A stretch of 64,000 nucleotides of DNA from the sequence record MK962749. One strand, given 5' to 3'. The stretch is from Shigella phage CM1. This document shows positions 39,294 to 44,745 of the stretch, one piece after another (within the stretch, counting starts at the first letter, position 1; every line of letters begins with the position of its first letter). The notes beneath the pieces were generated by a model. The model was not told where the DNA came from, did no database searches, and saw only the letters and a program-made list of their open reading frames with translations. The translations under genes were made by a program, and so were the position numbers.

Positions 39294-39601
39294 GGTGGAT
39301 TATGTCTACAAAGGCGGCTAAATACTCCTATATGCCATCAACCTCTGCAGAGGTAGACTTTAGTTTCGATGTGTTTCCACTGTTTGAGGTGATTCTGGCA
39401 TACCCAACAATACTATCTACTCCTGAATCACTTGTACCTGTTAAGTTGCAGAACGCTATGCATTCTATGCACTACAACAATAAATGTAGGCACAGATGGT
39501 GTCAGGACGAGGAAAAAGATTTGGATAGTTTGAGGGATTTTGACAGTCACCTTTTGACACCTTTCAGCTACTCCAACCTTGATAAGCCCTCATGGGTATA
39601 G
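39290..39601 (+). CDS. hypothetical protein
   Basis: 103-aa ORF. Confidence 0.4.
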   Translation: MRWIMSTKAAKYSYMPSTSAEVDFSFDVFPLFEVILAYPTILSTPESLVPVKLQNAMHSMHYNNKCRHRWCQDEEKDLDSLRDFDSHLLTPFSYSNLDKPSWV

Positions 39602-39619
39602 CAAAATATCAAATTTAAG

Positions 39620-39655
39620 ACACCTAGGACGCTCTGTGGCGTCCTTTTCTTTATC
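39620..39655 (+). terminator. rho-independent terminator
   Basis: Hairpin AGGACGC-TCTGTG-GCGTCCT then TTTTCTTT; approximate. Confidence 0.55.
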
Positions 39656-39863
39656 TGGTGCACGATTGCATACCTTGGACAGATAATCTCGTTACAGAGC
39701 GTTTAAGAGCTTTCTACAAACAAGTCTCTCTTTCGAGCGTAGCGAGAACGCACGTCCGTTTTGACCCAAATCACCATACGCTCGGATTTTAACCAAACCC
39801 TCGCGGCGTTTCTGTTGACACATTACCGCTCCAGTGATAGTATCCACACATAGTTTGGAGAAT

Positions 39864-39965
39864 ATGGAATACACAATGAGAACATTGTCTGAAGTTTTAG
39901 TGGTGATCCTGATGATCATTACGTCCATAGCGGCTGTTGCCGGAATACTCACGGGTGGAACATGA
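39864..39965 (+). CDS. 33-aa membrane peptide
   Basis: RBS GGAGAA; MEYTMRTLSEVLVVILMIITSIAAVAGILTGGT; stop overlaps next start. Confidence 0.35.
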   Translation: MEYTMRTLSEVLVVILMIITSIAAVAGILTGGT

Positions 39966-40165
39966 TCAACACACATGCATCTGAAGGAGTGACGACCATA
40001 TGTAACCTGGATGAGCCAGTTAAAGAGGAAAACTTAGATTCTGATGACTCTTCATCTTCGTCCCAGACAGATCCTGAGGCTGATGACCTAACGTGGGAAG
40101 ACATCGTAGACATCTGGTTCTCTATTATGCCTGAGCACGAAGAGTTCAGAGGTGGTAGACTATGA
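39962..40165 (+). CDS. hypothetical acidic protein
   Basis: 67-aa ORF. Confidence 0.3.
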   Translation: MINTHASEGVTTICNLDEPVKEENLDSDDSSSSSQTDPEADDLTWEDIVDIWFSIMPEHEEFRGGRL

Positions 40166-40286
40166 AGCACCGAGCCCACACAGGTTCCTCATGCTAAAGC
40201 ATGGCCTGAAGAGGCAAACGTGCATAATTCCAGCGTATTGGAACGTATAAAACCCTGTTCACACTCTCATTTCCAGAGGAGATTTC

Positions 40287-40502
40287 ATGAAGATAGAAAT
40301 ATTTGGTGGAGCTGACAACACTCGTGGCCTGATTTACCTTGAATTCGATGAATCATACCTGCCAGAGGTGTTAAATATAGACTCTGTTGCTGAGGCTTTG
40401 GGAGTAAACCCTAAAGAACTCCACTCTTGTGCTGAGATCGATGGTTGGGAAGAGACCATGAACATTGATTTCAGTGAAGTAGAGGATGAACCGCTGGACT
40501 GA
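40287..40502 (+). CDS. small acidic protein (MKIEIFGG N-terminus)
   Basis: 71-aa ORF with RBS AGAGGAGA; last plus-strand gene before the gene desert. Confidence 0.4.
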   Translation: MKIEIFGGADNTRGLIYLEFDESYLPEVLNIDSVAEALGVNPKELHSCAEIDGWEETMNIDFSEVEDEPLD

Positions 40503-41533
40503 CACACAATTAGCTGCCCGGCTAAAGTGCTGGAAGCGCACCTATAACACATCTTTCAACTAAATTTCCCACCACCACAATCACTTACCTTCCACACATG
40601 ACTGTTTGCTTGTTTAGTGAGCAGTCATGCCTTAACATTCTTGCCTATCCTGATAAAATTAAGTTCTTCTCTTTTCTTTTACCGAGTAATTCGGGTTTTC
40701 TGTTCTCTTCGGTTTGAAGGGGTATGGAGATACACCTGAGTGAACAGGGTGAACAACCGAACATTTGGCTATGGCATTAGCATGGCGAAGCGGACGGGTG
40801 ACGAAAGAGGGGCCGGAGGACACCAGTCACTGCCATATGATATATGGGTGATAACCTGAAGAGTCTGAATAAGTGTTTAAGTACCAGTCAGAGGAAAAGG
40901 TGAATGGTAGCCGAAGGGGGAGGGGGGTTTCTTGTATCTTTAATTTGTATATTATGTATACACTTGTAAACCAATATCATCTAAATCTGTTTACCACACA
41001 AAGTGGATAGAGACAAATATTACCTATTAAACTTGAATTATTTATAGAAAATACCACAACACCACTTAAGTCTTTGATTTTACACACAAATCTTACAGAT
41101 ATTCAACCCCCATATTTAACATACCTGTAACATATTCCATACTCTACCCGCCTGATCAATTTCCCCAACTACATCCCCCATATTTCCCCCGTCTGTACTA
41201 CCACTGCCCCGCCGGGAGTCCCGTCATATCTGGCTTTCCAGCAAATATCACACCCACAAATATCATTGCCTGAAGAGGGTTTCATCCCATAATACATGCC
41301 TTACCTGAAGAGCGCTTCATACACCACGTAAATTTTTTAATTGACCTGCAATTTCTCCTCAGATATCCCCCTGTCCCGCCGGAGAGGTTGTCTTTTCCCA
41401 CACAGACCTGAAGAGTCAGTCAGAAATATCTGAATAGTCCCAATTCTACCACGATTTTGACCTGACCTACAGGGAGGCCCGAAGGGTCTAGCTTTCAGCT
41501 AGAGCCCTTGCAGGACCTACAGGAGCGCTGCCA

Positions 41534-42579
41534 GGCGGACGGAATGGGAATACTTCTCATTCTTATAACAATTCTCAAATATCGAGGCAGTGAGAGAAAT
41601 TAATAGGCCAGGCCGTTCACACAGTGGCACAACATTTGCAACCTATTTTGTGTGGATGAATGAGAATACCTATCATTGTGAGAACTGTTATCATTACGGG
41701 CAATTTAACATAATACCCATTATGCGCACCACTGGCGATACATACAGGGATTGATAACATGGGTTACTGTTTACGCACATAACAATTATATTTCTTATTA
41801 TTTGTGGGGGATATAGTTAGCAGCCAATAGATTAGATATTGACCTGCAGACTTCTGACCGTCTAGACGTCTAAACGCCCACACATCAAGGGTTATACATA
41901 CATTACTGAATGTAAACAAGGCCGCAAAAATGCTACCATACCAGTTTGTAAATTTTTCATGCAGCACTTGACAAAGAGGAGGAAAACTTGTCTGACATAC
42001 TGTGACATAATATGACATAATAGTGACACACTGGGCATACTCAACACACTGGATACGGCGGACGGAATGGGAATACTTCTCATTCTTATAACAATTCTCA
42101 AATATCGAGGCAGTGAGAGAAATTAATAGGCCAGGCCGTTCACACAGTGGCACAACATTTGCAACCTATTTTGTGTGGATGAATGAGAATACCTATCATT
42201 GTGAGAACTGTTATCATTACGGGCAATTTAACATAATACCCATTATGCGCACCACTGGCGATACATACAGGGATTGATAACATGGGTTACTGTTTACGCA
42301 CATAACAATTATATTTCTTATTATTTGTGGGGGATATAGTTAGCAGCCAATAGATTAGATATTGACCTGCAGACTTCTGACCGTCTAGACGTCTAAACGC
42401 CCACACATCAAGGGTTATACATACATTACTGAATGTAAACAAGGCCGCAAAAATGCTACCATACCAGTTTGTAAATTTTTCATGCAGCACTTGACAAAGA
42501 GGAGGAAAACTTGTCTGACATACTGTGACATAATATGACATAATAGTGACACACTGGGCATACTCAACACACTGGATAC
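41534..42579. repeat. tandem direct repeat, 2 copies of about 523 bp
   Basis: Minus-strand track ORFs 41764-42153 and 42287-42679 share an identical 96-aa C-terminal segment; likewise 41892 and 42415; both offsets 523 nt. Confidence 0.85.
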
Positions 42580-42599
42580 AATAACAATTGTTACTATTG

Positions 42600-42960
42600 C
42601 ATGCCTCACTGTTCACGCATAGATGATAAGCCATGCCATTCGTTTGCATGAAAACAATTAACAAGATAACAATCGACAAGTTAATAATCTTTCGCTGGCT
42701 ATGCCAGGTGACTAGGTCACCCCTTCGGGCGTTCCTATGACATAATATAAAAGCAGGGCAACTATTAGCAGATCTATAGTTGCCTTGCTTGTTATGTCAT
42801 GATTAACTAAATACAAGGCAACTATGATCTGATTAATAGTTTGCAGACAAACTATCACGGGGGTGATGGTTACTGCTTTTATATTATGTCGCGACTCCGT
42901 CGCGCCATGCCATTCGTTTGCATAGTTGCCTTATTGTTACAGATAAAATAATTGTATTGT
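42600..42960. repeat. cluster of inverted and direct short repeats (iteron-like)
   Basis: GGCAACTAT-N10-ATAGTTGCC; 18-bp inverted pair GACATAATATAAAAGCAG / CTGCTTTTATATTATGTC about 110 bp apart; GCCATGCCATTCGTTTGCAT twice; palindrome GGTGACTAGGTCACC; approximate. Confidence 0.6.
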
Positions 42961-43539
42961 TAATTATTTCTTATCTTTCTATTAGTCATCTAATGATTTC
43001 AGTTAATATAGTAACGTACAGTAAACATTAGACGACTAAAGATTTCTCTGCTTATGGTAACCTAACGTGACAATTCCAGACTGTTTACGAAAAATGTTGA
43101 CACCTGGGCCGATTTATGTTATGCAGTTTACACGAATAATTATTTTATGCAGGTATTGACTATTCCGTTATTCTATGGTTGGAATAAATGCTTAGCAGGC
43201 TATAGAATGGCGAGCGTACGTAAATTCTGAGATCTGGCGGCTATAGTTATACTCAATTTTTCACGTAGAAAACGTTTTTGTAGTTATGTAAGTGTATGAC
43301 TTATAAAGATTTTTAGTTGTTGACAAGCTATTGAAGATATGCATCAGGTTAAATTTTGTGCAATAGCGGCATTACGTGCACTTTTGGGAGAGAAAACGGG
43401 TAAAAATGGACTTGCTACCACACAATGAAAAATTATGCAATAGTTATTTTCCATGTATATTTGTACAGTATGTGGGATTGATGGCTAGTCCATTATTCCA
43501 CTTGCCAGGTAGGGCCGTTTATGGTAGGAGAAGAGCAGA

Positions 43540-43570
43540 CAAAGAGAAAGGGGCCTAAGCCCCTTGATAA
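43540..43570 (-). terminator. rho-independent terminator at end of minus-strand gene array
   Basis: Hairpin AAGGGGC-CTAA-GCCCCTT, T-rich tract following on the minus strand; approximate. Confidence 0.5.
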
Positions 43571-43583
43571 TTCAGTTAAAAAA

Positions 43584-44003
43584 TTATAATGATTCGTATA
43601 TTTCAAAAATCCGATTTGCCAGGTCGTTACGGTAGCGGAATTTTTCCTCACGTTTGATCATAAGATCTTTATAGCCGTACTCTTTAAGCACTTCATTAAC
43701 TTTATAGCGGCATACTTTCATATTATCCTGCGCGTCACCAATAAATCTGTTGCTATGGTGCATGGCTTTAATTTCTTCTTCCAGGACCAGGGCAACTATG
43801 CGGACCGGATCAAGCTGATAGGCGGTAACATCCATGCGGCATTGTAAACGGCTTTTTACGTCTGCCACCGGATATACTGCAACCTCTTCCCCGTCAACAT
43901 TGACAATAATTAGTTTACCATCGATTTCGAATCCTTTCGCCGCCGGACCGTGACAAAAAGCGTTATCAAAGCTATATGCCGGATTATTAGATTTAATGTT
44001 CAT
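43584..44003 (-). CDS. hypothetical protein
   Basis: 139-aa ORF. Confidence 0.45.
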   Translation of the reverse strand: MNIKSNNPAYSFDNAFCHGPAAKGFEIDGKLIIVNVDGEEVAVYPVADVKSRLQCRMDVTAYQLDPVRIVALVLEEEIKAMHHSNRFIGDAQDNMKVCRYKVNEVLKEYGYKDLMIKREEKFRYRNDLANRIFEIYESL

Positions 44004-44148
44004 GGTGTTTTTACCTCTTAGTTAATTTTCTTACAACTTCCCTTTAAAAAAGAATATAGCAAAACTGCCGATCCCTGTCAACCAGGGATAGCATAATTTT
44101 TTATGTGATCAAGGGGCTTTATTGCCCCTGACCATGTAACTTGTTGTA

Positions 44149-44412
44149 TTATTTGTTGCTCATCCAGTTTTCCCAAGCTGCCTGATAATCTGCCTCACTA
44201 CGGCGGATCTCTTCTTGCTCTTCAAGGCGGATCTCTTCTTCCAGGTACCCCAAGATGTCAGCCTTTTTAGTCTGGCGTAGCATCCAGTCATCTTTTTTGC
44301 GAGTGAAGATCTTATAAGCTTTCTCGCAAACCTCTTTTTTGCTACCTTTCTGGACTTCAAGAACACGATAAGCCATATATTGAACTAATTTGAGCTGATC
44401 AAGACGTTTCAT
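44149..44412 (-). CDS. hypothetical protein
   Basis: 87-aa ORF. Confidence 0.45.
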   Translation of the reverse strand: MKRLDQLKLVQYMAYRVLEVQKGSKKEVCEKAYKIFTRKKDDWMLRQTKKADILGYLEEEIRLEEQEEIRRSEADYQAAWENWMSNK

Positions 44413-44472
44413 GATGTTTACCTCTTTGTGCGGTTCTGATTAGTGGGCCTTTTGGCCCGTGTCATTATCTTA

Positions 44473-44745
44473 TTACTTATGGCGGCAGAATTCAAGCGTT
44501 TTTAATTGATAATCTTCCTCAGCTTGGAGTACGACCGCCTCGATCATTTCGTTGGCATTGTTAAAGCCATAACCTTTAGCGAACTCATCCGCGCCACCTT
44601 CGTGATCATGTTCTGCGTTCATCGCTTCCACAAAATGGAATTCCAAATTGTTGAGGTAGGGGCTTGATGTTCCGTCCTCTTTTTCGATGAGATCCCAAAT
44701 AGCATTAAAACGTGATTCGACTTCTTGATTAATCCAGCTTGACAT
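44473..44745 (-). CDS. hypothetical acidic protein
   Basis: 90-aa ORF. Confidence 0.45.
   Translation of the reverse strand: MSSWINQEVESRFNAIWDLIEKEDGTSSPYLNNLEFHFVEAMNAEHDHEGGADEFAKGYGFNNANEMIEAVVLQAEEDYQLKTLEFCRHK

Follow-up and report, generated by a model that had tools for sequence, protein, structure and literature searches.

The apparent 523-bp tandem repeat of Shigella phage CM1 probably represents two direct terminal repeats set end to end

The two adjacent 523-bp copies that occupy the middle of a gene-free region in the genome of Shigella phage CM1 are very probably the right-end and left-end direct terminal repeats (DTRs) of its chromosome, set end to end. The assignment comes from comparison of sequences, and the physical ends of CM1 itself would lie where they do in its relatives. 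(The window referred to below is the whole stretch of DNA that was analysed, 64,000 nucleotides of sequence record MK962749; coordinates are those of the window, and a slash within a sequence marks a cut site or the boundary of the repeated unit.) The window is that of a Vequintavirus, an rV5-like E. coli myovirus, and 121 records match it at 90-96% identity. The gene-free region is the already known non-coding end region of this phage group, and the observation is in that sense real but ordinary.

A preliminary description of this DNA, made from its letters alone, saw a tandem repeat of 2 x 523 bp. The repeat exists where it was placed, and its two copies are identical at 523 of 523 positions, as expected of copies from one template:

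41534-42056, no strand: candidate right-end terminal-repeat copy, 523 nt as represented, homologous to the annotated DTR of relatives
42057-42579, no strand: candidate left-end terminal-repeat copy, 523 nt as represented, identical to 41534-42056

The phase of the repeat is unambiguous (the preceding bases are a and c, the following bases g and a), and the 64-kb window has no other long repeat (499 25-mers are shared at offset 523). (Tandem Repeats Finder missed the unit because the longest period that it handles, 500, is shorter than 523; a general repeat search and a script were used instead.) What does not stand is the tandem arrangement as a property of the phage chromosome: the copies would be terminal ones, juxtaposed by the way in which the sequence is represented.

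The boundaries of the unit carry most of the argument.

41518-41541, no strand: left cut-site context GGAGYGCTGCCA/GGCGGACG, with the putative left terminus between 41533 and 41534, equivalently between 42056 and 42057
41993-42056, repeated at 42516-42579, no strand: extension past the canonical 459-bp DTR, 64 nt, a TGACATA / TGACAC decamer array

The left boundary of the window's unit is GCTGCCA/GGCGGACG, which is that of the Vequintavirus DTR. The records of HdK5, EdH4 and bov10K2 begin at the unit's first base (GGCGGACG...), as do those of Gotham, ECP2309 and YN3 (by hit coordinates), and the bov10K2 record ends at GCTGCCA. The first 459 bp of HdK5, EdH4 and ECP2309 recur at the other end of each record; Gotham (MT682716) has an annotated repeat_region at 1-459 and 136567-137025; YN3 matches at 1-458, and in two places in its record. 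Terminal redundancies of 458 bp have been described for EdH4 and HdK5 (Korf et al. 2019, PMC6563267). The 459-bp core of the unit is 93-98% identical to 119 records, including the Gotham repeat_region 1-459. A physical terminus or packaging site, one of several functions that the preliminary description had offered for the region, is thus well supported by the coincidence of the unit's left boundary with the start of relatives' records and by the records with a 459-bp DTR.

On the right, the records of HdK5, EdH4 and ECP2309 end at ...AAAACTTGTC, which corresponds to position 41992. ECP2303 was opened at this canonical right terminus, AAAACTTGTC/TGACA, and Aya and Pr121LW are placed there by hit coordinates. 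The canonical site is intact in the window at 41992. Whereas the DTRs of HdK5, EdH4, Gotham, ECP2309 and YN3 measure 458-459 bp and end in ...AAAACTTGTC, the window's unit does not end at this boundary and runs 64 nt further, to ...CACTGGATAC/AATAAC; a terminus at the unit's own right boundary (42056 or 42579) is supported by no other record. The array of TGACA repeats is hypervariable (pairwise identity 0.48), and every exact match to TGACATAATA in the window falls in 42003-42747. Among 13 aligned genomes both cut-site contexts are almost invariant, and the sequences that directly flank the DTR on either side are hypervariable.

Published statements on genome ends in rV5-like phages conflict. 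Circular permutation has been stated for rV5 (PMC3606486) and, from PhageTerm, for bov rV5-like phages (PMC8407724), and BpE1AUH was called headful (PMC13211470). The version-2 records of the bov phages were possibly re-opened to match HdK5 and do not constitute independent evidence. The start of bov10K2 has been downgraded as independent evidence of a terminus because the corresponding paper speaks of its termini as 'circular permutated' and gives version 1 a different length.

Comparison of copy number with relatives, which the preliminary description had proposed as a check, bears on the same point. The matched span in relatives is ~2,520 bp as against 3,081 bp here, and ~120 relatives therefore have one copy of the unit. 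Records that were opened elsewhere contain a single internal copy each, and those of HdK5, EdH4, Gotham, ECP2309 and YN3 have one copy per record end, whereas here the copies are adjacent. A contiguous junction of DTR with DTR is absent from the best 30 of 119 matching records, and the 24-mer across 42056/42057 has no match in viral, genome and metagenome contig collections. (I29 was considered as a second case of adjacent DTRs and rejected; its duplication is a different one, of 594 bp, with an inverted junction.) A distant blastn search for the region in other Vequintavirinae genera returned Vequintavirus records only.

On this reading the virion DNA would be linear and have the same short, exact direct repeat at its two termini, and the tandem look would arise from joining of the right end to the left, be it in a wrapped, re-opened or circularised representation or in end-to-end chimeric reads. 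The step from 42056 to 42057 would be the meeting point of both physical ends and not a bond in the virion chromosome. An assembly duplication, which the preliminary description had named as grounds for discounting the repeat, would then be half true: the copies are adjacent through representation, yet probably real termini. By analogy with T7-type phages, replication would generate concatemers with one DTR per genome unit, the terminase would cut at two conserved sites (left, GCTGCCA/GGCGGACG; canonical right, AAAACTTGTC/TGACA), and the DTR would be duplicated during packaging. The remaining ~2 kb of the region would be the non-coding DNA of two chromosome ends, and both flanking gene blocks are transcribed towards it and terminate in it.

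T7 has repeat arrays adjacent to the junction and a hairpin intermediate. Genomes of the T7 type (the PhageTerm class 'DTR short') likewise bear one short, exact repeat at each end, with conserved boundaries and short-repeat arrays beside the repeat, and one copy is expected per concatemer unit. Conserved sequence at both cut sites, which T7-type packaging calls for, was found across the 13 genomes. Unlike the T7 type, genes at both ends are here transcribed outwards, towards the ends. Nearer at hand, the DTRs of HdK5 and EdH4 (PMC6563267), Gotham (MT682716), ECP2309 and YN3 are orthologous to the unit (93-98% identical), share its locus between the two convergent gene blocks and have the identical left terminus. 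KPP-1, a Klebsiella phage of the same subfamily, Vequintavirinae, has a DTR of similar length (~0.5 kb; 514 bp, from doubled coverage and PhageTerm; PMC9862379) but belongs to another genus and has no DNA similarity to the region detectable by distant blastn. The 'non-coding' box that lies between genes 163 and 164 of rV5 (Kropinski et al. 2013, PMC3606486) is this gene-free region as found in rV5, at the same convergent strand switch; rV5 differs in having one copy of the unit and in being described as circularly permuted, and its box was given no termini or function.

The region, 40503-43583 (3,081 bp), is without coding signal. The last + strand ORF (40287-40502) and the first - strand ORF (43584-44003) bound it exactly as the preliminary description had it; relatives carry both as annotated CDSs (navn_129/130, bas53_0131/0130, rv5_gp158/gp159), and the flanking genes are small hypotheticals. 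That no credible ORF lies between them is borne out by the alignment of 13 genomes, in which substitutions lack codon periodicity in every segment and ORF (all p>0.2); 6 of 7 flanking genes have a strong third-position excess of substitutions (p 1e-7 to 0.02). The longest ORFs in the region (129-130 aa, - strand) are owed solely to reading across the repeat. Candidate small ORFs were rejected as genes for want of codon periodicity and on account of frameshifting indels, among them 13 CDSs annotated in PMBT16 and a 60-aa ORF at 43376-43558, which is frameshifted in PMBT16 and PDX. A tRNA scan of the window found none, and an Rfam 15 covariance-model search over 39500-44500 found nothing at E<=1. 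The AC-rich and G-rich tracts that had been pointed out are both present, measured by GC skew as C-rich tracts (-0.39 at 40550-40699; -0.51 and -0.44 at 41000-41299) and a G-rich tract (+0.28 and +0.25 at 40700-40999). Outside two indel-rich arrays that flank the DTR, the region is conserved at coding-like levels.

The two ends would carry conserved candidate cis elements (CCTGAAGAG sites, block A and a palindromic block B), with the two hypervariable arrays abutting the DTR. Those at the right end are the following:

40503-41533, no strand: right-end unique non-coding region, which in the putative linear virion genome would separate the right terminal repeat from the last + strand gene
40553-40902, + strand: block A, 350 nt of highly conserved non-coding DNA, a candidate for a small RNA or for a cis element in DNA
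40632-40659, + strand: σ70-type promoter-like site at the head of block A, extended -10 TGaTAAAAT, a consensus match only
40682-40704, + strand: terminator-like hairpin and T-run, ~180 nt past the last + strand gene, invariant in 13 genomes
40855, 41269, 41304 and 41407 (span 40855-41415), + strand: four copies of CCTGAAGAG on the same strand, candidate sites of protein binding, all upstream of the left cut site
41350-41517, no strand: hypervariable segment rich in indels, directly to the left of the left terminus

A counterpart of 40503-41533 is present in ~120 Vequintavirus records, mostly unannotated there, and in rV5 the segment corresponds to the left portion of the 'non-coding' box (PMC3606486). 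Block A has a mean pairwise identity of 0.985 with 3.7% variable columns, compared with 0.957 and 9.1% for the adjacent 3 kb of genes. The term 'ultraconserved' would be too strong (flanking genes are 95.7% identical, and some 100-nt coding windows reach 99%). Block A has no match in 5,426 E. coli genomes and is therefore not a mimic of host sequence. The promoter-like site within it is the best promoter match of the region (10/12 with TG). CCTGAAGAG occurs seven times in the window, always on the + strand, where 0.48 copies are expected; four copies lie within a 560-nt span, and the motif positions are almost all invariant in 13 genomes. The hypervariable segment has a mean pairwise identity of 0.19-0.56 in 50-column windows (0.625 in a 6-genome set) and contains an insert of 50 nt (41466-41515) that is rich in hairpins and has the direct repeat GACCTACAGG at its borders.

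The left end, beyond the second copy of the unit, is made up as follows:

42580-42736, no strand: hypervariable left-end segment, pairwise identity 0.39, 81% variable columns
42582-42593: 12-nt palindrome TAACAATTGTTA, in the hypervariable left-end segment
42609-42617: one CTGTTCACG unit, of which rV5 has roughly ten related units
42630-42649 and 42904-42923: two copies of GCCATGCCATTCGTTTGCAT, the second in block B
42737-42939, no strand: block B, invariant branched palindrome with its core at 42739-42890, four (A/G)GGCAACTAT sites and a GC mini-hairpin
42940-43547, + strand: AT-rich conserved non-coding stretch, identity 0.87-0.98, without codon periodicity
43097, 43156 and 43320, + strand: TTGACW-N12-TATGNW motifs on the same strand, in the AT-rich stretch
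43548-43565, - strand: intrinsic terminator for the block of - strand genes, with a terminator annotation in HdK5 and EdH4

The block of inverted repeats noted at the 3' side of the region is real: 42739-42890 folds as a branched palindrome of 152 nt (z = -10.5 as DNA; -8.1 and -9.3 as RNA on the two strands). Block B, in which the (A/G)GGCAACTAT motif is enriched, is 95-100% identical in 13 genomes, save that rV5 and phita32 have 33 nt inserted in it. The array in the counterpart of 42580-42736 is expanded in rV5, phita32, EI-SP-GF and HdK5. TTGACW-N12-TATGNW matches four times in the window against 0.29 expected, and three of the four matches lie in 42940-43547.

Joined terminal repeats have to be weighed against a genuine internal duplication, in which 523 bp would have been doubled in tandem very recently in the chromosome of this isolate, independent of representation. 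Such a duplication would accommodate a unit that differs in length from the 459-bp DTR of relatives, and I29 has its different 594-bp duplication in the same region. It is nonetheless very improbable: its left breakpoint would have to fall on exactly the nucleotide of the known left terminus (a chance of ~1 in 2,500 for a breakpoint placed at random in the gene-free region), there is no microhomology at the breakpoints, the head-to-tail junction is absent from the best 30 of 119 relatives and from three contig collections, and a perfect 523-bp tandem repeat would be expected to be recombinationally unstable. A replication origin in the gene-free region, particularly in 42580-43100, could be true alongside the termini. 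Iteron-like arrays, AT-rich stretch and inverted repeats are present there, CTGTTYAC units vary from 1 copy here to ~10 in rV5, and the invariant palindrome with its four (A/G)GGCAACTAT sites adjoins a stretch of 29% GC. Cumulative GC skew, the check suggested for an origin, turns against that proposal: it peaks at ~41 kb instead of reaching a minimum and changes with the direction of transcription, and therefore lends an origin no support. In rV5, for which a change of GC skew was reported at the 'non-coding' box (104425-105475), the authors found a flip at every strand switch (PMC3606486). No initiator gene is adjacent, the neighbours being small hypotheticals, and the iteron count is not significantly above expectation (5 CTGTTYACR in the window versus 2.2 expected, a number reached by 8 of 100 shuffles). 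An origin here is accordingly judged unlikely.

A non-coding RNA locus, the remaining option, fares no better as a whole. It would comprise block A, transcribed from the σ70-like promoter at 40632-40659, and/or short + strand transcripts from 43097-43343 that end at the 43548-43565 hairpin. The near-consensus promoter with its extended -10 element is shared, conserved, by 12 of 13 genomes, the ~250 nt after it are more conserved than the neighbouring genes, the region has no coding signal, and the predicted fold of block A pairs its CU-rich 5' end with its GA-rich 3' end. Against this, a search of 40540-40960 at permissive thresholds matched Rfam families at chance level only (E 0.6-6.4, far below gathering scores); the thermodynamic signal of block A is weak (z = -1.57 on the + strand and -0.25 on the - strand); near-invariance deprives covariation of any use as a test; and CM1 itself has a weakened -35 hexamer (TTAACA, versus TTGACA in the other 12 genomes of the alignment). 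A literature search for Vequintavirus transcriptomes or a 523-bp DTR found nothing relevant. An RNA locus is, like an origin, improbable.

For the joined terminal repeats, a further reading with three parts can be put forward, as a whole rather doubtfully. The right cut site could shift within the TGACA array, and the DTR would then be truly polymorphic in length (459 bp in relatives, 523 bp here). The non-coding ends might form a structured cis-acting module, in which the invariant 152-nt palindrome, ~160 nt inside the left DTR, would together with the variable TGACA and CTGTTYAC arrays drive DTR duplication or replication priming, with a hairpin intermediate like that of T7 or N4. Independently of these, block A would specify a novel small RNA of the phage.

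It would be wrong to record the apparent tandem repeat as a repeat of the genome, as an origin or as some new element; it would mark the physical ends of the chromosome, in a region that ~120 deposited genomes leave blank or over-annotate. This phage group would package from fixed ends with a DTR of ~0.46-0.52 kb, though several papers say circularly permuted or headful. Fixed ends would matter for the orientation and annotation of the genomes of rV5-like therapeutic phages and for their engineering.

The two-copy tandem repeat claimed in the preliminary description is exact: its copies, 41534-42056 and 42057-42579, are identical at 523/523 positions, and its phase is unambiguous because the bases preceding the two copies differ, as do those that follow them. 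Apart from this 523-nt unit, the 64-kb window has no long repeat; that Tandem Repeats Finder did not report it is due solely to a period limit of 500. Relatives match the region over ~2,520 bp as against 3,081 bp in the window, and therefore carry a single copy.

Where related records begin and end identifies the unit. The first base of HdK5, EdH4 and bov10K2 (GGCGGACG...) is also the unit's first base, as it is, by hit coordinates, for Gotham, ECP2309 and YN3; the bov10K2 record ends (...GCTGCCA) at the base directly before it. In HdK5, EdH4 and ECP2309 the terminal 459 bp duplicate the initial 459 bp, Gotham is annotated with a repeat_region at 1-459 and 136567-137025, and YN3 matches at 1-458 in two places in its record. 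ECP2303, a record with one copy, opens at the opposite boundary, between ...AAAACTTGTC and TGACA, as are Aya and Pr121LW by hit coordinates. Since several relatives' records start at the unit's first base and carry its first 459 bp at both ends, the unit is, on sequence comparison, the direct terminal repeat (DTR) of the Vequintavirus group, and the window evidently presents a right-end copy followed directly by a left-end copy. Korf et al. 2019 describe 458-bp terminal redundancies in EdH4 and HdK5 (PMC6563267); for KPP-1, of another genus in the same subfamily, doubled coverage and PhageTerm show a DTR of 514 bp (PMC9862379). (PMC8407724 gives bov10K2 a length of 135,960 bp and calls its termini 'circular permutated'. 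Its version-2 record, MT884008.2, is 135,883 bp and has the left terminus of the DTR as its exact start; the 77-bp shortening could be trimmed assembler overlap.)

Identity to the 121 phage records that match the region is 90-96%, and all of them belong to Vequintavirus (rV5-like E. coli myoviruses), JohannBauhin being closest at 95.7%; the searched phage collection holds no record at least 99% identical, and distant blastn found the region in no other genus. Nineteen GenBank records titled 'Campylobacter phage' (MG0656xx, with C. jejuni as host; most are UNVERIFIED) share 91-95% identity with it, and NCBI classifies that of D1 as Vequintavirus FFH2; it would seem that either these records are misnamed and assigned to the wrong host or the stocks were contaminated.

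A query spanning the junction between the copies aligns as two pieces in swapped order in 30/30 of the best of 119 records, none of these 30 matching contiguously across it. Viral, genome and metagenome contig collections contain no match to the 24-mer across the junction, and the repeat breakpoints share no microhomology. The simplest reading is that the apparent tandem repeat arose from joined ends: a linear genome with both DTRs would have been wrapped, re-opened or circularised, or assembled via end-to-end chimeric reads. A different 594-bp direct repeat in I29 (ON286975.1, 634-1775) comprises the C-rich right-end region and ~215 nt from the start of the DTR, its copies joined via a ~48-nt inverted segment; it seems to be an artefact of assembly at the physical left terminus, not a biological feature.

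In the window, the canonical right terminus falls at 41992, with the site intact. The unit runs 64 nt past it (TGACATACTG TGACATAATA TGACATAATAG TGACAC...GGATAC), within a hypervariable array, and stops 3 nt short of a 12-nt palindrome, TAACAATTGTTA. By hit coordinates, no other record is opened at this boundary. A phage with a true 523-bp DTR, its right cut shifted, and a boundary set differently by depositors or assembler are about equally likely.

The gene-free stretch (desert) surrounding the repeat has the limits originally proposed: 40502 is the end of the last plus-strand ORF and 43584 that of the first minus-strand ORF, both ORFs being annotated CDSs in relatives. Its C-rich and G-rich tracts and 3' inverted-repeat block are likewise present. 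The desert is truly non-coding. A one-copy version aligned with 12 relatives has no codon periodicity in any desert segment or ORF (all p>0.2); the 3 kb of genes upstream, aligned with five relatives, have a third-codon-position excess of substitutions in 6/7 genes (p 6e-8 to 0.02). Frameshifts in PMBT16 and PDX disrupt a 60-aa ORF (43376-43558), which is rejected as a gene; with periodicity lacking from all desert ORFs and segments as well, the 13 hypothetical CDSs placed there in PMBT16 (PP554575.1) are over-annotation. Other relatives' records annotate 1-3 CDSs, likewise without coding signal in the cross-genome test. The window (1-64000) contains no tRNA genes; Vequintavirus genomes are reported with 5-7, and those of CM1 must sit in the other genome half.

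Conservation along the desert (mean pairwise identity; profile over 13 genomes, with genes included in a 6-genome comparison)
Gene baseline: 0.957
40553-40902: block A, conserved non-coding, 0.985
40903-41349: stretch with three of four clustered CCTGAAGAG sites, 0.936
41350-41517: hypervariable segment ending just short of the conserved left cut-site context, 0.625
DTR core: 0.944
41993-42056 and 42580-42736: hypervariable, together containing TGACA decamers and CTGTTYAC units, 0.48 and 0.39 respectively
42737-42939: block B, essentially invariant save a 33-nt insertion in rV5 and phita32
42940-43583: remainder, 0.92

Thus mapped, the DTR has an indel-rich repeat array on either side (CTGTTYAC units number one in the window and roughly ten in rV5), and the cut sites lie where conserved DNA meets variable DNA.

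Block A is preceded by a near-consensus extended -10 σ70 promoter-like site, has a weak fold signal, and has neither an Rfam match nor a counterpart in E. coli genomes. The -35 hexamer of the promoter-like site (40632-40637) is TTAACA in the window and TTGACA in 12/13 genomes, one of few changes in this nearly invariant block. CCTGAAGAG occurs seven times in the window against 0.48 expected, always on the plus strand (15157, 22914, 40205, 40855, 41269, 41304, 41407); four clustered sites are almost invariant, that at 40855 lies within block A, and three copies lie outside the desert. TTGACW-N12-TATGNW combines a perfect -35-like box with a spacer shorter than σ70 requires. It has four copies where 0.29 would be expected (43097, 43156 and 43320, plus; 49460, minus) and is only partly conserved, TATG of the second site being TGTG in 7/13 genomes.

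Block B contains a 152-nt branched palindrome (fold z -10.5 as DNA, -8.1 and -9.3 as RNA on the two strands) and four (A/G)GGCAACTAT sites. The insertion common to rV5 and phita32, TTAACATCCTCGAGACGAAGGCTATGCCTGAG, falls inside the palindrome (between 42791 and 42792; alignment columns 1970-2002). An exact 20-nt direct repeat, GCCATGCCATTCGTTTGCAT (42630-42649 and 42904-42923), brackets the block, both copies being conserved in relatives.

The preliminary description offered four options for the desert, and that of a physical terminus or packaging site is well supported, several relatives' linear records starting at the unit's first base. A non-coding RNA locus is a reading of low probability; a literature search found no transcript data for Vequintavirus. 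For block B, whose predicted fold is equally good on both strands, a DNA-level element is accordingly a better fit than a strand-specific RNA. Iteron-like arrays, the palindrome and an AT-rich stretch would suit a replication origin; however, the cumulative GC-skew maximum at ~41 kb is a convergence pattern that follows transcription direction, and lends that option, which has low probability, no support. In rV5, skew is described as changing at every strand switch (PMC3606486).

The unit is orthologous to deposited DTRs and has exactly their left terminus; the contexts of the cut sites are conserved, and relatives carry a single copy. By analogy with T7-type DTR phages, concatemers would carry one DTR per genome unit, both conserved sites would be cut by terminase, and packaging would be accompanied by duplication of the DTR. 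A hairpin-intermediate model exists for T7. Speculatively, the palindrome and arrays might act in end formation, as in that model, or in priming, as with the N4 hairpin priming mentioned in PMC3896407. A functional cis module made up of the end regions, together with a genuine polymorphism in DTR length, seems unlikely.

The feature is already known, since a non-coding box was drawn in the 2013 rV5 paper, which called the genome circularly permuted (PMC3606486), and the DTR, described in 2019, has a GenBank annotation (Gotham). Some later papers still call rV5-like phages permuted (PMC8407724) or headful (PMC13211470). What the window contributes is only a longer repeated unit and its unusual representation.
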